DNA of 64,000 nucleotides from a virus (lineage: Duplodnaviria; Caudoviricetes): IMG/VR virus record IMGVR_UViG_3300033562_000989, positions 1-64,000 of that record. The stretch is one strand, 5' to 3'. The stretch's first letter is position 1; every line of letters begins with the position of its first letter. The notes below the pieces were generated by a model. The model made no database searches and was not told the origin of the DNA. It was given only the letters and a program-made list of their open reading frames with translations. Below are positions 1,290 to 45,300 of this stretch, piece after piece. A program made the translations under genes and the position numbers.

Positions 1290-2720
1290 ATGGTTATTGC
1301 TAATTACGTAAACGTAAAGCCAGAAATGGCACACAGTCGTACCTACGAGGATTTTTATAAATTCTTAGGGGCGCGTCCAAAGATGATGGGAGTTATGGCT
1401 CGTATGTATACAAATAATACAGCGACTTTCTTAACAGAAGCCTTAATGAACATCTATTACAATAAGAAAAACGAAAGTAAATTCCAACCTATTAACTCAT
1501 TAATGATTGAGTGAAGTATTGATGTTGAATTTATTAAAAGAGTATTCTTTGCAGCTTCTCCAATTGGAAATGGTATAGGCGGTGCAGATATTACAATGTA
1601 TTTCACAGAACGTTATTATGAAAAATATGATACTTTCAAAATTGATGACAGTCGTCAACAATGTATTGTAAAAACAACTCCTCAACGTAGAGGAGATAAT
1701 TTCTATGAGTACACTGTACAATTAATTGATGCAGATTATTCATCTGAATTAGATGTAACAGCTTGTGCTGCTGGGCTAACAACTCGTTTTTTATCTAATA
1801 TTCAACCAGAATATTCAGAAGAAGGTTTCACTAAATATCAGAGTAATATAGAAAAACATCGTCAGTGGATTACAGAACATAGAAATGACATTTCATATTC
1901 TAGTCGTTATGCACAAAACGAAGCTCAATTTATTAAAATTGCTCAAGGTGAGGGAACTGGTGAGATGCAAGAAAAGATTTTCAAACTTAACAAAATGGAA
2001 AAAGATCTTATGGATAACTTTACCACTGGTAAGAACAATCACTTGTTATGGGGAAAAACAACTATGAATGTAGATGGTAAATCAACAGTTTTAACTGAAG
2101 ATGGACGTCCATTAATTGCAGGTGATGGTTTAATTCCACAAATTGAAAGATTTGCATCTAAATATAAATTTGCTAAATTAAATGTTAATGTAATTAACAC
2201 TGTAATGGAGCAAATGAACCAAAAAGCAGCTAATGCTACTGGTAATCAATATACATTCATTGTAAATGACCGTTTATGGAGTCAAGTTAACACTACTCTT
2301 GGTGATTGGTTGAAATTATGGGGTTCTACTCCAACAATGTTGTATTCTAAAGCAACTCAATCTAATGTTAAAATCGACAATCCTGTTAAAGTAGGTGCAA
2401 CATTTACTTCTTATGAAGTTTCTGGAAACACTGTAACTTTCATGGTGGATCGTGCTTTAACAAAAGAATATCCTACAAAAGCTTATGGTATCTGTTTAGA
2501 TATGTCTCCAGATATGTCTACGTCACAACCTGCTATTGCAGCATTTACTTTAGAAGGTGCAGAATTCATCACAAGTAAATATCCAGGAGTTGGTGGAGTC
2601 GATGGCATCACAAGTGGCATCGTATCAAGTCCAGTTGCTGGAACTAAATTAGTTGTTATGGGTTATAGTGGAATCGTTGCATTCGCTCCGTGAAGAAGTT
2701 TTATAATTGAAGAGGTATAA
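1290..2720 (+). CDS. major capsid protein (TGA=Trp at 1512-1514 and 2691-2693; unspliced form 476 aa ending PWRSFIIEEV)
   Basis: ORFs 1290..1514 and 1596..2693 are in one frame joined by TGA. RTYEDFYKFLG, TFLTEAL and VSSPVAG match crAss-like MCP as I recall it. TAA at 2718-2720. Confidence 0.9.
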
Positions 2721-3764
2721 TCTTTAATTATGTACTCAAATCGTTAATTAATACAATACATTAAATTTTATTCATAACATATATTTTAGAAGAAATAATA
2801 TTTGTAATTTTGTAATATGAAACACTATTTATATAAAATTATAAATATTGAAACTGGTCAATATTATGTTGGAGTTAGAAGTAACAAAAATCCAGAACTA
2901 GATAAATATATGGGTTCAAGTAGTATTTGGACACGAAAATGGATAAAAGATAATAAAGAAGTATTAACTAAAGAAATAATAAATGATTCTTTTTATAGTA
3001 GAGAAGAAGCTAATATAGCAGAAGTTAATTTACTAAAACAATGTGAATTTGATACATTATGTATTAATTGTTTATTTGAAAAAATACCAAGTCACTTAGG
3101 TGTGAAACAATCTAAAGAATGGATAAATAAAAGAAAATTATTCGGAGAGAAAAATGGTATGTATGGTAAACATCATACAGAAGAAGTAAAACAAAAAATA
3201 TCAGAAAGTTTAAAAGGTAGAATTGTTTCAGAAGAAACTAGAACTAAAATTGGTAATGGGCATCGTGGGAAAATTGTTTCAGAAGAAACAAAATTAAAAC
3301 AATCCATAACTAAAAAAGAAAAAATAGCCTCTGGAGAAATAAAAAAAACTTATAAACCAGTAATTGTAGAAGATTTACTATTAGGAATTACAGAATATTT
3401 TGATGGTTGTAAATTATTTGCTGAAAAGTATAATTTAAACTACGGCTCTGTAAAAGTAAGTGCTAGAAAAGAAATTATTTATTTAAAAAGGTACAAAATA
3501 AAATACGCGGCTTCTACAAGTGATTGTAGTCGCAAATTGGGTGAATTGCTGGAAACTCCGGAAGCGGACAATCAGCAGCCAATCATTAGCCTAAATGACT
3601 AATGCAGGTTCAACGACTAGGTATTGAAACTACACAGTAGAATATAATATACTCACGAGTGCCCGACACCTTAATAAACAAGGTGATGATATAGTCTGAG
3701 CTGCAAATATAACAAAATAAATTGCAGAAGTATAGGATAAAGAGCTTATACGATAACAACACTG
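2692..3764 (+). mobile_element. group I intron (or intron remnant) at the MCP 3' end, carrying a GIY-YIG endonuclease
   Basis: Core elements P (AATTGCTGGAAAC), Q (AATCAGCAGCC), R (GTTCAACGACTA), S (GATATAGTC). P3 TTGGGT/GCCCGA, P7 GACTA(3615-19)/TAGTC(3692-96), P8 CACCTT/AAGGTG, terminal G at 3764. The 5' boundary is inferred from reading-frame restoration and is less certain. Confidence 0.8.
2817..3602 (+). CDS. GIY-YIG homing endonuclease with NUMOD3-type repeats
   Basis: YLYKI...YYVGVR...YMGSS N-terminus, GEKNGMYGKHHTEEVKQKIS and SEETR/SEETK repeats. The ORF runs into the intron core. Confidence 0.9.
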   Translation: MKHYLYKIINIETGQYYVGVRSNKNPELDKYMGSSSIWTRKWIKDNKEVLTKEIINDSFYSREEANIAEVNLLKQCEFDTLCINCLFEKIPSHLGVKQSKEWINKRKLFGEKNGMYGKHHTEEVKQKISESLKGRIVSEETRTKIGNGHRGKIVSEETKLKQSITKKEKIASGEIKKTYKPVIVEDLLLGITEYFDGCKLFAEKYNLNYGSVKVSARKEIIYLKRYKIKYAASTSDCSRKLGELLETPEADNQQPIISLND

Positions 3765-3793
3765 ACAGATCAATGATAATTGAGGAGGTTTAG
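3765..3793 (+). CDS. MCP terminal exon (second copy of the C-terminus): (T|AC) Y-R-S-M-I-I-E-E-V-TAG
   Basis: Joining T2691 to A3765 restores the MCP frame and gives PYRSMIIEEV*, 8 of 10 residues identical to the unspliced ending PWRSFIIEEV*. Confidence 0.7.
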
Positions 3794-3806
3794 GCCTTAA
3801 AACATT

Positions 3807-3846
3807 AATTACAAGAGAGACTTAAAACTCTCTTGTAATTATTTTT
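3807..3846 (+). terminator. intrinsic terminator-like hairpin after MCP
   Basis: 13-bp perfect stem AATTACAAGAGAG/CTCTCTTGTAATT followed by ATTTTT. Confidence 0.7.
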
Positions 3847-3906
3847 AAAACAAGATATAAAACAACAAGATAACAATACAACAATATAATTTTTAATAAG
3901 TGTAAA

Positions 3907-4782
3907 ATGAGTAATGAAATAATTCTTAAAAGTGTTTATGGCAAAGTCCAAAAAACATATTTTATTCAACCATGTCCAAATCCTAAAACAGGTAAACTTC
4001 CTTCATGTGTAAAAACAGTAAATTCAAATGGAGATATGATTCTTTCAGAAGATGATATAGTACAAATGAATACAGGCAAAAAACATTTTGTTCCAGCCGA
4101 CTATGTATTTACAATTACAGATGGTTCATATTTTAATCTTGATGATGTAGTAGACGCTGCAAATTGGGAAGCAATACAATATTGCAATTGGATTGCAAAA
4201 GATAGACATGAAAGAGATCATAATGGTAATTTAATAATTGATGGTGACGCCAAAAAATATGGAGTTGCAGATTTATATATTGAAAGACCAGGACAAGCAA
4301 CTAAATATAAAGTCAGCAAAAAACAAGAGATTTTTGAAGCACAGAAATATATCTTTGGTGATAATGAAGGTGAAAGACTTAAAAAAGCTAAAGTTTTAGG
4401 ACGCAGCTTATCAAATGCGGTACCAGCAGATGTATTAGATTATTTAATAGAAATTTCTGAAAAAACTCCTAAGAAAATTAAAGATTTATACGAAGGTGAA
4501 GATTGGAAAATGCATTTATTTATTCTTGATGCTATAGACAGAGGAGTAATTAGAAAAGCTGATGGTATTTACAAATATGATGATAAAATTATTGGCGGAA
4601 CTATTGAAGCGTCAATTATCTTTTTAAGAGATATTCGTTACAAAAAAATATTAGACTCTATTAAAAGAGAAACATACCCTAATCTGTTAACTAAAAATGA
4701 AATTGATGAAATTCAAGAACAAATAACAGATGGTATACCACATTTTGAAGATTCAGCTGCTAAGAAAGCAGTAAAAAAATAA
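3907..4782 (+). CDS. conserved crAss-like structural protein (gene following MCP)
   Basis: 291-aa ORF. IILKSVYGKV...YFIQP...GKLPSCVKTVNSNGDMILS resembles the conserved post-MCP crAss gene. Confidence 0.75.
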   Translation: MSNEIILKSVYGKVQKTYFIQPCPNPKTGKLPSCVKTVNSNGDMILSEDDIVQMNTGKKHFVPADYVFTITDGSYFNLDDVVDAANWEAIQYCNWIAKDRHERDHNGNLIIDGDAKKYGVADLYIERPGQATKYKVSKKQEIFEAQKYIFGDNEGERLKKAKVLGRSLSNAVPADVLDYLIEISEKTPKKIKDLYEGEDWKMHLFILDAIDRGVIRKADGIYKYDDKIIGGTIEASIIFLRDIRYKKILDSIKRETYPNLLTKNEIDEIQEQITDGIPHFEDSAAKKAVKK

Positions 4783-6081: not shown

Positions 6082-7182
6082 ATGTATCAATTTACAACAA
6101 CAAATGTAATTAATTCAGCCAAAGATTCAAATACAGCTATTGATAAATATGCTGGAGCAAACGGAGTGTTTAATGTAGCTCGCGTAGGTTCATTTAAAAA
6201 AGATAATGTAGTAAGTGTTTATAAAACAGCTTATAATGCTTCAACTTTAGAAGTAGCAAAAGTAAAAATTCCTAGCGTAACTTCATTAGATAAAGTATAT
6301 AGATTAACAGTAGATGTTAGATTAATTAATTCTACAAATTCAGAGTACGCTAGTACATATATTTATTTCAAAAAACCAGTAGTAGTTGAAGTTTTAGGAA
6401 AATCAACTCCTGCCCTTACTGCTGCTGCTTTAGTAGATGAAATTAAAAAATTGAAAGATCGTTATGGTGTATCATATATTACTGCTGAAGTAATTAATAA
6501 TACAGACTATATACAAGTAACTTGTACTGAATCTCACCAACGTATTAAAAGTATGATTATAGAAGAAGAAACTGCTAGTACAAGTACTTTAATTTTACCA
6601 CAATATACAGATTTATCTGGAACAACATTCTCAGTTACAACTACAGGAGTTCAAGGTTTCGGAGATGATGAATGGATGGTTAGAAATATTGTATTGCCAA
6701 CTGCAGAAAATGTACGTTACTTTGGTATTAACAAAGATGGTCGTCCAATCATTGGAGGTAATTACTCTCAATACACTTTACGTTATTCAATTGAAAAAAC
6801 ATGGAATGACGGTATTGTTGCTGGAGGTACTTCAGTTACAACTCATGTATTCTATGTATTAGAGTCTTTAGTTCCAAGTTTTGAAACTGCTTTAGCTGCT
6901 GCTGGTATTATAAATATTATAACTATCGGCGGAGATGTAGACTTAATTATTATAGGAGATCAAACTATGGATCTTAGTGAGACTTCTGAAGCTACACAAA
7001 CTTTATTAGTTAAAAATGCCACTGGAGCAGTAACATGGTCATCTGGCACTACAGGAGTTGCTACAGTAGGAGCTAGTACAGGTGTTGTAACTAGAGTGGC
7101 TGCTGGTTCAACAGTAATTACAGCTACTGATAGTTCTAGTCCAGCTAAAACTGCTACATTTACTATTACAGTTATAGCATAG
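6082..7182 (+). CDS. capsid-associated structural protein with C-terminal Ig-like (Big_2) domain
   Basis: MYQFTTTNVINS start typical of crAss. C-terminal VTWSSGTTGVATVGASTGVVTRVAAGSTVITAT fits Big_2. Confidence 0.75.
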   Translation: MYQFTTTNVINSAKDSNTAIDKYAGANGVFNVARVGSFKKDNVVSVYKTAYNASTLEVAKVKIPSVTSLDKVYRLTVDVRLINSTNSEYASTYIYFKKPVVVEVLGKSTPALTAAALVDEIKKLKDRYGVSYITAEVINNTDYIQVTCTESHQRIKSMIIEEETASTSTLILPQYTDLSGTTFSVTTTGVQGFGDDEWMVRNIVLPTAENVRYFGINKDGRPIIGGNYSQYTLRYSIEKTWNDGIVAGGTSVTTHVFYVLESLVPSFETALAAAGIINIITIGGDVDLIIIGDQTMDLSETSEATQTLLVKNATGAVTWSSGTTGVATVGASTGVVTRVAAGSTVITATDSSSPAKTATFTITVIA

Positions 7183-25839: not shown

Positions 25840-28800
25840 ATGGAAATAACTAAACCAAATGATATACTTATAGCTACTATAAATAATCCTCTGGCTACAA
25901 CATATGATTTAACTACTATAGATTTAAATCCTATTAACACAGGACTTTTAAGTAAAGACGCTTATAAAAGTACTAAATATATTCAAGATGCTTTTAAGAC
26001 TACAGATGGAAAATTTGATGAAATAGCTTTTAATGAAACATATAATAAGGCTGCAAATCATTACAGTGAAATGAGTAATGATGCCTATTTAAAAGGATTA
26101 GACGAAGTTACCTATAGCCCTTTTGACGTTACACGTCCAAAAGATGCTAAAACATTTAAAATTGATGTAGAATTTACTAAAGACTTTAATCCCTTTCAAC
26201 AGCTTTATAATAGAACAAGTGTAGGAAGCGTAGATAATAATCCGCTATCATTAAGAGAAATAGCTCAACAAGGTAAAATATTTGATACAAAAGAGAAAAA
26301 ATGAAGTGAAACTACAGTAAATGAATTAGGATTACTAGATAAAATATTTGGGGAAACTTTGGTTTATGCTCAATGAGATGATGAAGGTATACATAAAGAT
26401 GTAGAAACTGGATTAAATACTAAACATTCTAAAGGAGATTGAAAGATAAATGATAACGGTAATATATTTGTAGAAACTTTAGGAGATAGAGAGATGTATG
26501 GAAAGCAAATAGTAAATCCTAAAGATATATTAACTACAGATGGAAGTTTTGCTAATAATTTAGACCTTTTTGATAATGATAATATAGAGAGTAATGCTAT
26601 TAAAACTACTTTTAGATTAGCTGCAGAAATAGCCCCTTTAGTTATTCCTGGAGTTAATTTATATTATGGAGGTGTAAAAGCAGCTATCGGTTTAGCAGGC
26701 GTACTACCAACATTTTATAAATCTTTAGAAGGCATGTTTTTAGGAGATACTAAAACAGGGCTAACAGATTTAGCAACTAAAACAGAGGGATATTTAGCTA
26801 AGTTTAATCAGAAATCTAATTCTGACGAAGCTCAAGGTAGTTTCTTTAATTATGAACAATTAGGTGGTATGGTTGTAGATACTTTTGGACAATTATACGA
26901 ACAAAGGGCAGTTGCATCTTTATCAAAATATTTTGTTAAATCTAAATCCGCTGCTTTATTAGCTAAAGAAGCTGATTTAGAGTCGGAAATAGGGAAAAGT
27001 TTATTTGCAGCATCTAATTCAGGTAAAATAAATTTACTAAATAAAACTGGACAATTAAGTGACGAAGCGGCTAGTTTAGTCAAAGCAGCTAGAGAAAAAC
27101 TTCCAGAATTACAAAGTTTACAAAAATTACAGTCAGGTATAGCTAAATCATTATCGTTAGGATATATGGCTATGACTTCTACAGCTGATATATATGGACA
27201 TGCATTAGAAGTTGGTTATGATAGACGTACAGCAGGATTCTCTGCATTATTAGCAGCTTCTGGGCAATATGGAATCATGATTAATAATAGAATGGGAGAT
27301 TGGTTTTTAGAAGGAACAACTGGATATAGCTTACAAACTAATAAAACTCTTATGCGTAAAGCTGTTAAAGAGTATATGGGAGATATACAAGATGGTTTTA
27401 AAATATTTGGAAAAGATAAAATGGCTGGTAAATTAGCATTTTCTACTATAGCTAAAAATTTTAAAAATACTATTACCGATACATTTACTAATGGTTCTGT
27501 TGTAGGAGAAGCTATGTGAAAAAATGCTATGGTAGAAGGAGTAGAGGAAGTTACAGAACAAGCTGTTTTAGATTCTACTAAAGCTATAGTTGATGCTATG
27601 TCTTATTTAGGTCTAACAGAAAAGAAAGGTAATTTTAATGCAATTGAAAAAACTTTTAGTAAAGAAGGAGCACAAGAATACTTAGCTAACTTTATAGGAG
27701 GTATTCTAGGAGGAGCTATGTTTGAATTTAATACTTCAAAAATAGAACCTTTATTTAATAAAAATTTAGTAAATCCTATAACTCAAAAATCAGTTCAGCA
27801 ATATGTAGCTAATGGACATACCGACCTTTTAATTGATATGGTCAATAAACAAAGGAGCAGATTAGGTAATAACTATTTAAGTCCTGTTCAAGTTGATGGT
27901 ATGTATATAGCAGCTGAAAATAATAAATCCCAAGCTGACTTTATAGCAGATAGTACTATAAGTTTTATAAGAAATCAAGACGGTATAATAAATGGAAAAA
28001 ATTGAGGGAAATCTGATGCAGAAATTGTAGAAAAAACAATGATGGATCAAATTGCTATTAAAATGTTCCAAGACTCTAAAGGTGAAAATAAAGTTGGTAT
28101 AGAAGGTCTTTTGATAGATGATTTTAATAATAATAGAGAAGAATTTTTAAGAGTAAATGAGAAAATTAAAGATCTTTCTAAAGATACAGTATTAAATAAA
28201 GATGCAATAGCAGAATTAAAAGAAGAGGCTAAAATATATGAAAATAACATAAATGATATGTTAGCTGGTAAAAAAGCAGAGGAATATTTTAATGAAGCTA
28301 GTTTTTATTTTGAAAAAGAAATTAGTGATAATTTTTTAAATATTGATAGAGACAGTTTTTCTAGGGCTAAATATGGAAAAAGCTATAATAATATAAAAGA
28401 TTCTGGAGTAGGAGTTACAAAAGAAAGAGTTGATAAAGAATGAAAAGAAGTTTTGAATTCTACAGATGTTAGAAAAAATATTAAGACTGCTTTTAAGGTT
28501 TATTCTGAGATTGAGAAAATGATTAATCCTTCTATTGCTAAATATACAGAAAAAGGTTATTCAGAAGAACATAAAAAATCTTTACAAAATATATTTAAAA
28601 CAGTAGCTACTTTAAATTTATATGATGTCAGTAATCCAGAAACTAAAAAAGAAAATATAAGAACTACTTTAGATTCTGCTAAAAAAGTAGAACAGGCTAC
28701 AGGTAAAAGAATCATTCCTTATGATATTTTATCAACTGATTTTGTTGGCCAGTTTTTTAAAATGAACTTATTATCAGATTTAAAAGGTAATGTTTTAACA

Positions 28801-40800: not shown

Positions 40801-41222
40801 AAGATAATATAAAAGCATTAATTAAATCATTTAATGGTGAAATAGACGCGATAATACCTTTAATGAATAATCAAACTTTAAAATTAAAAAAATTAATTAT
40901 AAAAAATGGTATTAAAATGCAAGTTCCTAAAAATTTGGATTATATAGCTTATAATACTTTTGTAAACTTTACCTCTTATAAAGGAAAAGCAGCTTTTGAT
41001 GAAAAATTAGATAGTGATTGATTTGAAACTAATAAAGAACAGATTTTAAATCAATTAGCTAATAAAAAGTATTCTTCTTGGTTAAAACATCATCAAGTAG
41101 TAACTGCTCGTATACCTGCTCAATCTATGCAATCTTTTATGGAAATGTATAATATTGGATATCTTAAAACAAATAATAATGATGCTTATGTATCTATATG
41201 GCAAATATGGTTGCAAGGATCT
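34836..41222 (+). CDS. virion RNA polymerase, exon 1 (2129 codons, TGA=Trp)
   Basis: In-frame fragments ending ...RIPAQSMQSFM...WQIWLQGS at a T preceding the intron. Confidence 0.85.
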
Positions 41223-41331
41223 AAAACAAAAATTATTAAAATTTAAAATACAAAATTTCAACTTTAAATATATTTTTACCTTATAAACAAAAATATATTT
41301 AAAATCATATTTTTTATTACGACCAATTTAT

Positions 41332-41339
41332 TATCTTTG
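41332..41339 (+). promoter_or_regulatory. Bacteroidota-type -7 box TATCTTTG upstream of the intron endonuclease
   Basis: Exact consensus 23 nt before ATG 41363, inside the intron. Confidence 0.5.
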
Positions 41340-41362
41340 TATAATAATTAAAATAATAAAAA

Positions 41363-42154
41363 ATGGCAACAAAATTAGAAGAAAAATTACAAATTATTGA
41401 GTTGAATAAACAAGGTTTAACCAATAAGCAAATTAGTGTAGAAATGCACAAATCTCCAACAACAATTCGAAAAGTATTAAATGAGTATAACTTAGAATTT
41501 AATAGTGATAGAATTAAGATGATAAATAAAAAAGAAATAACTTATAATGCTGAACAAATAGAAGTATTATTGGGATCTTTATTAGGAGATATGTGCTTAA
41601 CAAAAGAAACGGTTAATGCAAGATGTGCAATATCACATGGAGGAAATCAAGAGTTATATTTTGATCATAAATGTTCATTATTTCCAAATTTATTAGGAAA
41701 AATATGTAAAACTCCACGATATGATAAACGGACTGAAAAATACTATAATAAGTATTCTGTAAGAATGTTAGCACATCCTAACTTAACTGCTTTATACAAC
41801 GAATTATATATAAACGGAGTTAAAACAATAACTGTAAATTATTTAAATAAATTAACAGAAAGAAGTTTAGCTTATTGGTTTATGGATGATGGTGCAAAAC
41901 ACGGAGTATTAGCTACAATGTGTTTTTCTGATTCAGAATTACAATTAATTCAAGAATTGTTTTTAAATAAATTCAATATAAGAACTAGAATTAATAACCA
42001 AAAATGTATATGTATTGTTGTAGATGATCTATTGCAATTTGAAAAACTAATTTTTCCTTATTTGATACCAGAAATGTATTATAAATTACATAAATTGGAT
42101 CCAAATTCCGTGAACTGCGGGAAACTCCTTAGAGATTCAAATACTAACTCATAA
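41363..42154 (+). CDS. LAGLIDADG_2-type homing endonuclease with N-terminal HTH
   Basis: EVLLGSLLGDMCL and LAYWFMDDG motifs. N-terminal QGLTNKQISVEMHKSPTTIRKVL is HTH-like. Confidence 0.88.
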   Translation: MATKLEEKLQIIELNKQGLTNKQISVEMHKSPTTIRKVLNEYNLEFNSDRIKMINKKEITYNAEQIEVLLGSLLGDMCLTKETVNARCAISHGGNQELYFDHKCSLFPNLLGKICKTPRYDKRTEKYYNKYSVRMLAHPNLTALYNELYINGVKTITVNYLNKLTERSLAYWFMDDGAKHGVLATMCFSDSELQLIQELFLNKFNIRTRINNQKCICIVVDDLLQFEKLIFPYLIPEMYYKLHKLDPNSVNCGKLLRDSNTNS

Positions 42155-42398
42155 TGGTAACATATATGAGGGCGTTGCTAACTACAACGATATAGTAAAA
42201 AGTTTGAATATTGGACAATCCGCAACCAAGCCACCTATATAGGTGGAAGGCTCAACGACTAGTAAGACCTACGAATGGTAGGCGTAGGACTCAAGCGAGT
42301 CCGAAGTGCGGAACATTGTAATTTTACAATGATGATATAGTCTCGACTTATGAGAAATCATAAGAGTTATAATAAAAGCGATTATAACGTAAGATACG

Positions 42399-45300
42399 GA
42401 TTTTGATATTGATAAAGCTTATGCAATGGCTTATGGGTTTAATAAAGATGGTCAATATGATATTTGAAGTCCTCTTTCTAATTACTCTAATGTAGAACAA
42501 TTAGAAGCTCTTGAAAATTTACCTGTTCCTAGTGGTAATATAGTAGAATTAAATGAAGGAGGTATTGGTACAGATCTTACAAACAATTTTATTAAATTTT
42601 TAGAATACGTTAAAACTAATAATATAATTAATATAGAAGATGCTACAAAAGATATGCCTCCAGATATATTAAATATGTTTGCTGACTCCTTAAGAAAAAT
42701 AAATAACTCTAATCAATTTGATAAAGTTTTTATAGGAATTACAGGAGAATCTGGTTTAGGTAATGAAGAAGAAATAATAGATACTAAAAATTTATTTATA
42801 TCTTTATTAAATTTACATAATGGAGATGAAAGTTATAAAAAGAAAGGTAATAGTATTAAAAATTCGGTAGTTTCTAAAATTAGAAAAATTATATCTTCTC
42901 CTAGTAATCAGATTTTAGCTAATACTCCTGTTAATATTAATCCTTTACATGATGGAGCTGCTAAAGCTCTTGAAATGAAATTAAAAAGAATAGAAGAAGG
43001 ATTTAATTTAACTGAATCAGAAGGAACAGGATTTAAGGATTTTAATCAAAAAAAGATTATAGAGTATTTAGAACATTTAACTAATGAAAAAATTATTGGT
43101 AAAGATTATAAAGAATTTAAAAATTTAAAAGGAAAAGATTTAGCTTTAAAAATAAAAGAAATATTATTAAATAGATCTCGAAGAAAAGTTTTAATTTCAA
43201 GTTTTGATATGCTCTCTATGTTTAAACAGCAAGAAGATGCTAGTATAGGTAAGGCTGATGTTGGTATTGGAGCTAATGGCTTAAAAGTATTTTTTGCATT
43301 AAGTAGTTATTATAATAATTGGTATGATTCAATAGATAGTGCAGAAGAATTAAATAAAACAGATTTCTTTACCAATAATAAAAGCTTTAGAAAAAAGTTT
43401 ACAGTTAATGGTGAAACTAGATTAATTCATACACTTGCTAATGTTGGAATAAATAATGAGCAGTTAACTAAAATTTTAAATACCTATGGTTACGATGAAT
43501 TAAGTAGGCAACAATCAGCTTTAAGTACAAATCAAGCTGCTATTTCAATGTCAGCATTTGTTTCAGGAGCAACTGATAACGCTAAAGAACTTGTAATGGC
43601 TAAAATTAATGCTGTAGTAGAACTTGCAGGGATGCATTTATATATGTTTTCTTTAGGGTATAATGAAGATGAAGTAGCAATTTTTATGAACTCAAAATTA
43701 GGATTATATATTAGTAAAAATCTTAAAACTAGTATGTATGATAATTTAGACAGAATTTATATATCTGATTTAATACAAAAGTATAAAGAAACAATCGTAG
43801 ATGAAGTTGAATTATTAGAAGCTGATACTTTCAAAGATATATATAATGGGGCTCAAGAGTTTAAAATACTAGCTTCTATATTAGGTGTAAATCAAAAAAC
43901 TTCTGCTAATACCATAGAATTAAATAAATTTTTAACTAAATTAGAGAATGCTATGTATATGCAAGAAGATAAAGTTTTAAAGTATGATTTAGGTAAATTA
44001 AAGTCTCCTGAAAAATGGGATGAAGTAATTAAAGGTTTACATGCCGGAAATAGTGATATAGATTTAAGTATTATTCAAAAAGTAATAGAAGAAAATTCAT
44101 TGTTAAAATTAAAATATGACAAAGGAGGAGAATATGCAACAGAAGTTATTAAGTATGTAAAAGATACTTTAGAAGCTGCTATGGATATTAAAATTAATTA
44201 CTTAGATGAAAATGGAGATATTAAAACTAAAACTGTAGATATAGTTGGAGGGGGATTTGATTTTAGATATTATATGTTTAGTAGCAATTATTCTTATAGA
44301 AAGGCCGCTGCAAACTACTATAATTTATTTAAAAACACAATAAATATCTTTGATTCCATAAATAATATGCCTCATTTTAAGGCTATGATTGATGGAGTAA
44401 ATATAATACATGAGACCCTTTCTGTTATAAGTAAAAAGTATAACTTTGCATTTAATTATTCCAGAGATATTATTAAAAAATATGAAGCTGAATTATTAAA
44501 ATCAAATAAAGATAATATTAAAAATAGATTTGGTAATAAAAATTTTGGAATAAAACAAGACGAAAAAGTTTTAGGAAGGCTATTTACATTTTATGATAAA
44601 TTGGTAGTATTTTCTTGGCTAACTAATTTAAAAACTCCAAAGAAAAATGATTTAACAGTTATTCCTAAAGATATCAGTTTAAATATAACAGAATTATTAA
44701 GACAACATAATAAAATAAATGGGATAACACCTATAAATACTATAACTTTAGACACAAGTAATAAAGCTAAGATTTATTCTCGCAATGATGCTAGTTTAAT
44801 ACGAAATTTATCTTTAAATAAAGACCAAAGAGAAATATCTGTTAATGATGATGAAGACTTTATTTTAGATATTAATTCTGATTATAATATAGCTAATTTT
44901 AAAATAGTTATGGAAGAATTGATTTATCCTATTTTATCAGCTTCAAAAAATTCTTCATTAGGGTCTAAATATCTTAATTTAGGGTCTGTTAGAAATTTAT
45001 ATGGAAATTTTACTACTCAAATACTATCAACTTATCAATTAAATAGTTTGAATACTCCAGAAAGCGTACAGAAATTTTCTGAATTAACTTCTAATTTTAA
45101 TGAAGTAGATCGTGTTATAGAGCCTGAATTAAAAATAAAGAATAATAAAGGCAAAGTTGTAGGTTATCAAGATTTACTTTATCTTTATAATTTAATAGTA
45201 AATAATGAATCTTATGGAGATAAAAGATTAACACCAATATTTGAAGATTATATTAAAAAACCAAATACTTTAGGGCAAGATTATTTAAATTATAGTACTT

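Follow-up and report, generated by a model that had tools for sequence, protein, structure and literature searches.

A capsid gene with a twice-encoded C-terminus

The window analysed here, a stretch of 64,000 nucleotides (nt) that forms positions 1 to 64,000 of IMG/VR virus record IMGVR_UViG_3300033562_000989, comes from a crAss-like phage of the gut type whose late genes read TGA as Trp. A 1,073-nt group I intron (2692–3764) splits its major capsid gene after T2691, which is the first base of codon 468 and lies nine codons ahead of the stop. The C-terminus of the capsid protein is encoded twice: once at the very start of the intron and once directly behind it. All features of this locus lie on the + strand.

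Exon 1 (1290–2691) comprises codons 1–467 and the first base of codon 468. The open reading frame (ORF) that it opens, 1290–2720, matches Pfam Crass_capsid (E = 2.4e-14) and gives a contiguous tblastn match to relatives over residues 1–476. Read with translation table 4, this ORF runs on into the intron and ends ...FAP-W-RSFIIEEV, with W encoded by TGA at 2691–2693 and a TAA stop at 2718–2720. We refer to the intron's first 29 nt, 2692–2720, as copy 1 or the surrogate last exon; together with T2691 they continue the exon 1 frame as W-RSFIIEEV. The true last exon, copy 2, lies at 3765–3793, directly preceded by G3764. T2691 joined to copy 2 reads TAC AGA TCA ATG ATA ATT GAG GAG GTT TAG, which encodes Y-RSMIIEEV and stops at TAG, 3791–3793. 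The predicted junctions are GCUCCGU/ACAGAUCA in spliced RNA and GCUCCGU/GAAGAAGU in unspliced RNA (a slash within a sequence marks the splice site here and below). Both frames are complete, and a full-length protein of 476 amino acids (aa) could on this evidence be read from either RNA, as a sequence-only reading of the locus had claimed; the coordinates that it gave for a C-terminus encoded twice around a group I intron all hold.

The two copies agree at seven of nine residues and in the stop, and differ at 10 of 29 nt; the spliced and unspliced protein tails differ at W/Y468 and F/M471. Among the approximately 128,000 eight-residue frames of the window, copy 1 (7/8) is the sole match to RSMIIEEV at seven or more residues besides copy 2 itself, and because it also stands in frame at the splice site with its stop in the same place, the resemblance is not due to chance. 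Two other tail-like strings, FNSFIIEQV-stop at 26198–26227 (out of frame in a 2,989-aa ORF) and IKSMIIEEET at 6547–6576 (in frame in ORF 6082–7182), may be chance occurrences in an AT-rich genome.

Relatives with 72–93% capsid identity that lack the insert end in ...FAPY[KR]SFI.EEV-stop and then continue into the same hairpin that follows copy 2 in the window. Copy 2 and its downstream flank are homologous to the capsid end of relatives without an intron at this site (L001, L003 and others; L-numbers denote loci of relatives, taken from independent assemblies including IMG/VR), a homology that the sequence-only reading had left to be looked for. Because the window's homology to intron-less relatives picks up again at copy 2, copy 2 is the resident last exon and 2692–3764 is the insert. 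The hairpin, at 3806–3841, together with its T-run resembles a terminator (3806–3848) closing the capsid transcription unit and is kept downstream of the capsid gene in L001 and L047; between 2500 and 4000 it is the only terminator-like site on the + strand. The 96-nt spacer that leads from copy 1 to the next ORF (2721–2816) is indel-rich and holds no terminator. In L001, the closest relative, tblastn suggested a second, longer duplication (residues 1–468 plus 432–476), which proved to be an ordinary intron at codon 433/434 combined with an over-extended alignment.

The frame into copy 1 passes through a TGA codon, for which the sequence-only reading had invoked Trp readthrough. In-frame TGA codons number 1–15 in each large late ORF, including W75 in the capsid gene, the single internal TGA of exon 1, and none is found in the leftward early genes; the reading of TGA as Trp in this phage is drawn from ORF structure alone. 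With TGA an ordinary sense codon in late genes, the W-RSFIIEEV ending requires no special readthrough, and normal decoding takes the place of the earlier claim. ARAGORN found no tRNA gene, and hence no suppressor tRNA, in the window (1–64000) or in the whole 78,398-nt contig; a suppressor tRNA for TGA must be encoded on an unassembled part of the genome or supplied from elsewhere.

Within the tail, residues P467, S470 and I472 are invariant across capsid proteins that are 46–83% identical. A phmmer search for a solved structure by which to judge the role of the tail gave no match, and a profile search for capsid structure matched phiCrAss001 gp32 over residues 231–387 only, with the C-terminus outside the match.

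Covariation of P1 and the ribozyme core

The ribozyme core and the sequence up to the terminal G (omega-G, G3764) occupy 3470–3764. RF00028 matches 3470–3706 at 71.3 bits (gathering score 50; E = 1.1e-17), and an alifold analysis of 15 related introns finds compensatory changes in 34 of 58 core pairs. The P2 hairpin, CUACAA-GUGA-UUGUAG at 3514–3529, shows them in four of its six pairs across 15 introns, and the terminal G stands before copy 2 in all 15 introns tabulated. Only short-range Rfam scans are informative for these elements: scans of the whole window or of many loci gave no match even for plainly present cores, the filters losing such AT-rich introns when given much sequence. A pattern search of IMG/VR for the P2–P3 region found no ORF-less version of the ribozyme, returning only known loci and chance matches in coding DNA.

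The 5′ strand of P1, CCGU/GA (2688–2693), pairs with the internal guide sequence ACGCGG (3505–3510), placing the 5′ splice site between U2691 and G2692. The sequence-only reading had also cut after T2691, pairing CCGU with GCGG, and had doubted so weak a P1 of four base pairs. Covariation across 17 lineages, drawn from IMG/VR, a metagenome scan and contigs encoding endonuclease homologues, bears out the site and removes the doubt. Exon position −2 forms G-C in 10 introns, A-U in four and U-A in three; intron position +1 forms G-C in six, A-U in 10 and G.U in one; and intron position +2 covaries with the guide in the lineages whose intron begins with A. Every one of the 17 introns has the U.G wobble at the splice site, and 95 of the 102 P1 cells are paired, compared with 81.4 ± 2.0 in shuffled sets, none of which reached 95 in 5,000 shuffles. 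Two loci illustrate the pattern closely: L048 and L082 have intron bodies that are 94–95% identical and differ at −2 and +1, and their guides carry exactly the two matching changes. This covariation fixes the 5′ splice site at U2691/G2692, sets the endonuclease ORF within the P1 loop and accounts for the alternation of codon 468 of copy 1 between TGA and TAT/TAC. In L173 (1440–1500 and the guide), the splice-site U is changed to C and its partner guide G to A, so that C.A replaces U.G; the 3′ end of that intron runs off the contig.

The sequence-only reading had also offered an alternative P1, UGUACU at 2731–2736 with GGUACA at 3489–3494 (+ strand), which would move splicing behind the stop of copy 1. 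This pairing is present in the window and L047 lineage only and absent at homologous positions elsewhere; we reject it as a conserved pairing, and at most it may be a cryptic, lineage-specific one. By comparison with its relatives, the window ribozyme is intact and under structural selection, and we infer that it splices itself.

A homing endonuclease ORF in the P1 loop

The P1 loop carries a 261-aa ORF (2817–3602) for a predicted homing endonuclease, which matches PHROG 314 ‘homing endonuclease’ (E = 1.9e-24) and Pfam NUMOD3 (33.3 bits; cut-off 20.4). Its last approximately 44 codons overlap the ribozyme. The ORF contains no TGA codon and is thus readable under the standard code; of its homologues, which number 201 at E ≤ 1e-10, those in L049, L051, L052 and L085 have in-frame TGA and need the recoded reading. 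Pfam GIY-YIG gives no match in the endonuclease even at E ≤ 5. Judged by eye only, the N-terminus YLYKI...YYVGVRS fits GIY-(10)-YIG, and the invariant residues Y4, Y6, Y17, G19, R21, E69 and N84 fit the GIY-YIG pattern. Mobility of the insert is seen in its presence or absence at one site in related capsid genes and in the occurrence of the same intron within diverged flanks in the window and L047.

Conservation of the dual design

The insert recurs, about 90–96% identical, inside a diverged capsid allele on an independent IMG/VR contig (L027/L047). This rules out an assembly artefact, which the sequence-only reading had left open and which about 20 further lineages from other assemblies likewise exclude, and it means that copy 1 is able to travel with the intron. 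Between the window and L047 the ribozyme cores are 96% identical, with no disruptive changes; copy 1 is 90% identical and copy 2 72%, and all eight nucleotide differences in copy 2 are synonymous.

Among about 20 lineages with this endonuclease and ribozyme, all but one have an in-frame copy 1 with its stop. The dual design spans endonuclease identities from 89% down to 45% and capsid identities down to about 50%. Throughout, copy 1 is free of indels and keeps its stop position and tail length, whereas the spacer that follows ranges between 76 and 111 nt in length and averages 0.58 in pairwise identity. The pN/pS of copy 1 is 0.33, against 0.32 for the real exon, and the window and L085 differ in copy 1 by six nucleotides and no amino acid (neutral P about 1e-4). 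Copy 1 also tracks the tails of individual lineages: L092 has a four-codon extension (...STEK..) in both of its copies, YKSYILFSTEKSI and YKSYLLYSTEKTV, which differ from one another at many synonymous sites, and in L091 and in L087 R/Q substitutions are common to both copies. Within most genomes the two copies differ at 4–12 of 24 nt, at synonymous sites, with nearly identical protein; as DNA, copy 1 is only 50–83% identical to the real exon in most lineages. The Ser codon is almost always AGT in copy 1 and mostly TCN in intron-less alleles. In public gene calls for L082–L085, the capsid protein is the unspliced 476-aa form ending in copy 1, and the spliced form is unannotated.

Relatives without copy 1 or without the ribozyme

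Variants of the design lack one or other of its parts. In L101 an intron at the same site has no copy 1: the frame stops at once (U/AA) and the endonuclease ORF begins 25 nt further on. L102 still has copy 1, the spacer, the endonuclease ORF and a remnant of copy 2, but its ribozyme is gone, from guide sequence to terminal G. In L097–100, which belong to an abundant cluster with contigs of 190–280 kb, at least some of them labelled human gut, there is only a capsid gene with a copy-1-type end and a free-standing endonuclease gene, and the same is true of a separate lineage, L095. The copy-1-type end is the sole capsid C-terminus in all of these ribozyme-less relatives.

In a tree of the endonucleases, L101, L102 and L097/100 fall within the clade formed by dual-design introns (support 97/99) and therefore look derived; outside that clade the tree is only moderately resolved. 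Taken as a comparison of sequences, the tree points to exit from the intron state through ribozyme loss. One proposal of the sequence-only reading, that splicing had become dispensable and left a free-standing endonuclease cassette, thus describes L102 and L097–100 and does not describe the window, whose ribozyme is intact and under structural selection.

Other introns in these phages

Capsid genes of relatives are split at many sites (L019, L027, L029–L031, L034–L046), with breaks near codons 75, 138, 175–190, 260–278, 394, 416/417, 433/434, about 458 and 468. As many as four or five inserts can occur in one such gene, and Rfam recognises group I cores in several of them. L043, considered for a time as an intron at the same site without a copy, was set aside: its intron occupies another site, approximately 10 codons upstream. 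In L019 a weak match to the Rfam Termite-leu RNA, at 34 bits and below its gathering score of 51, lies at 4606–4675, close to the intron region. The window itself holds a second group I intron (41211–42416) in a large RNA-polymerase-like gene, with a core at 42049–42364 (RF00028, 74.7 bits) and an endonuclease ORF at 41363–42154 with LAGLIDADG_2 and HTH matches (Pfam E 5.5e-33), which also lies upstream of its ribozyme.

A probable fail-safe surrogate exon and its alternatives

We consider it probable that copy 1 is a surrogate last exon within a mobile intron, kept by protein-level selection as a fail-safe, and that splicing rejoins the native tail. This reading draws on what sequence and comparison establish, namely the layout of the locus, the covariation of P1 and core, the coding-type conservation of both copies and the existence of ribozyme-less relatives. 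Bacterial translation is coupled to transcription. A ribosome trailing RNA polymerase would meet the 5′ splice site long before the ribozyme, approximately 800 nt downstream, is made, so that ribosomes would often enter the intron before splicing is possible. There, copy 1 would let the ribosome complete a 476-aa capsid protein ending ...FAP-W-RSFIIEEV, instead of a truncated protein. Once the ribozyme had folded, P1 (CCGU/GA with ACGCGG) would direct splicing from U2691 to G3764, and the message would then encode ...FAP-Y-RSMIIEEV. Selection would retain the surrogate exon as a guard against truncated capsid subunits, which might be poisonous. The ribozyme would incidentally become dispensable, and its loss in some relatives would have left a free-standing endonuclease gene behind the capsid gene.

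Several points weigh against a fail-safe. That the intron splices, that unspliced RNA is translated and why selection keeps copy 1 are all things that we infer from sequence, and the selection statistics are weak, coming from copies of only nine codons in lineages that are not independent. L101 lacks copy 1, the copy in L096 is two codons short and that in L054 differs from its exon at five of eight residues; the surrogate is therefore not indispensable. Recombination, moreover, acts on copy 1. The two tails of L174 (1365–1400 and about 2420–2450) differ by 1 of 27 nt, and copy 1 in the L048/L082 pair, only 62% identical between introns with near-identical bodies, has moved with the upstream exon and not with the intron body. 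Repeated refreshing from real exons could thus mimic purifying selection on copy 1. The near-identity of the L174 tails suggests that one was recently converted by, or newly duplicated from, the other.

The main rival to a fail-safe is this recombinational refreshing, taken to its conclusion: copy 1 would be a passive by-product. Contiguous with exon 1 as in intron-less alleles, it would repeatedly take on the sequence of real last exons, or of copy 2, in the course of co-infection and homing, and would look conserved with no need for translation. To the L174 and L048/L082 cases can be added L054, whose exon 2 is identical to the window's copy 1 at 27 of 29 nt, indicating exchange between the two positions. 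We nevertheless regard a passive origin as unlikely. The synonymous divergence of the two copies in most genomes, with near-identical protein, speaks against frequent conversion; in the comparison of the window with L047, copy 1 goes with the intron and not with the flanks; the almost constant AGT codon sets copy 1 apart from intron-less alleles; and the ribozyme-less relatives rely on copy 1.

A role at the level of DNA, which we regard as distinctly improbable, would have copy 1 kept as an endonuclease operator that mimics the intron-less homing site, as a longer left homology arm for repair, or as a recoded, cleavage-immune junction. Exon 1 and copy 1 do recreate the intron-less junction approximately 125 nt upstream of the endonuclease start codon; I-TevI acts as an autorepressor by binding an operator in the td intron; and the consistent Ser-codon difference between copy 1 and typical target exons would suit immunity from cleavage. 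Such roles fit poorly with a pattern of conservation that is of the coding type, with third-position and conservative changes, a stop that is kept and a tail length that tracks the lineage, and with the low DNA identity between copy 1 and the real exon in most lineages.

That the window intron no longer splices, leaving a capsid gene, a free-standing endonuclease cassette and, in copy 2, a dead pseudo-exon, is the least probable alternative: P1 has only five pairs, the 6-bp pairing of 2731–2736 with 3489–3494 competes with it in this lineage and ribozyme-less relatives are viable enough to appear in many assemblies, but the core scores 71 bits and is nearly unchanged in L047, P1 and core covary across the family, all of the copy 2 differences between the window and L047 (8/8) are synonymous, and the terminator follows copy 2 and not copy 1.

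Parallels in known systems

The closest published parallel to a surrogate last exon is a mobile endonuclease ORF (mORF) of fungal mitochondria that comes with a duplicated gene C-terminus, described in Allomyces macrogynus atp6 and in Glomus atp6, atp9, cox2 and nad3 (PMC3630166). The sequence-only reading had known of no description of the arrangement; one of the same kind was in fact already on record for these mitochondria. In both systems a gene core is followed, in this order, by a C-terminus inserted in frame, an endonuclease ORF and the native C-terminus, now displaced, and in both the C-termini are alike in protein and diverged at synonymous sites; the mORF endonuclease, too, can be of the GIY-YIG type (PMC3630166). 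The mORF, however, is not an intron and has no ribozyme, and its native C-terminus is unused, being untranscribed in two of four genes (PMC3630166). In the window, by contrast, an intact ribozyme is predicted to remove the insert and rejoin the native C-terminus, both ends appear to be used, and the host is a phage capsid gene. L102, L097–100 and L095 have reached an mORF-like, ribozyme-less state and the window itself has not; judged by its sequence, the window element works partly like an mORF but is not one.

Group I introns of the T4 td, nrdB and sunY type also have an in-frame stop just past the 5′ splice site, a stop whose proposed role is to arrest ribosomes and leave the ribozyme free to fold (PMC3984707). 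They share with the window a phage protein gene as host, a loop-borne homing endonuclease ORF and the early in-frame stop. The codons before that stop are not reported to mimic the downstream exon in the T4-type introns (PMC3984707), whereas in the window they supply the whole missing tail at its native length. Models from 1994 for the entry of an endonuclease gene into an intron, as summarised in a later account (PMC3984707), likewise have a free-standing endonuclease gene and the intron of a neighbouring gene converging on one site, with exon-like sequence in the intron beside the endonuclease ORF. As summarised there, those models concern entry into the intron, whereas the endonuclease tree described here suggests exit by ribozyme loss.

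Zeta- and Delta-group crAss-like phages have been described as having intron-rich capsid genes and TGA or TAG recoding (Yutin et al. 2021, PMC7886860). The window agrees with that description in phage group, in late genes with TGA as Trp, in multiple group I introns in the capsid gene and in an RNA polymerase gene that has a LAGLIDADG intron. Where the paper deals with introns, TGA and homing, it reports intron density alone and does not mention a duplicated C-terminus or a surrogate exon (PMC7886860). Our searches of the literature turned up no description of the surrogate-exon design for phages.

Implications

The usual assumption is that a group I intron does no harm to a protein gene only as long as it is spliced. 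The intron described here itself encodes the end of the protein that would otherwise be missing, and so appears to protect its host gene when splicing fails or comes late; the comparative data show this design persisting over deep divergence. We suggest, tentatively and with a little less than even confidence, that surrogate last exons might be an evolved strategy of mobile introns in very highly expressed structural genes of viruses, one that uncouples the function of the gene from splicing and forms a stepping stone by which homing endonucleases change between the intron-borne and the free-standing state. Since the two tails, spliced and unspliced, are not the same, virions may on the same tentative view hold two capsid isoforms in a ratio set by splicing kinetics. 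The finding bears on the annotation of capsid genes in recoded, intron-rich crAss-like phages, for which gene callers now give the unspliced 476-aa form. It bears equally on how introns are converted into free-standing endonuclease genes, and on how mobile introns survive in essential, massively expressed genes under coupled transcription and translation.

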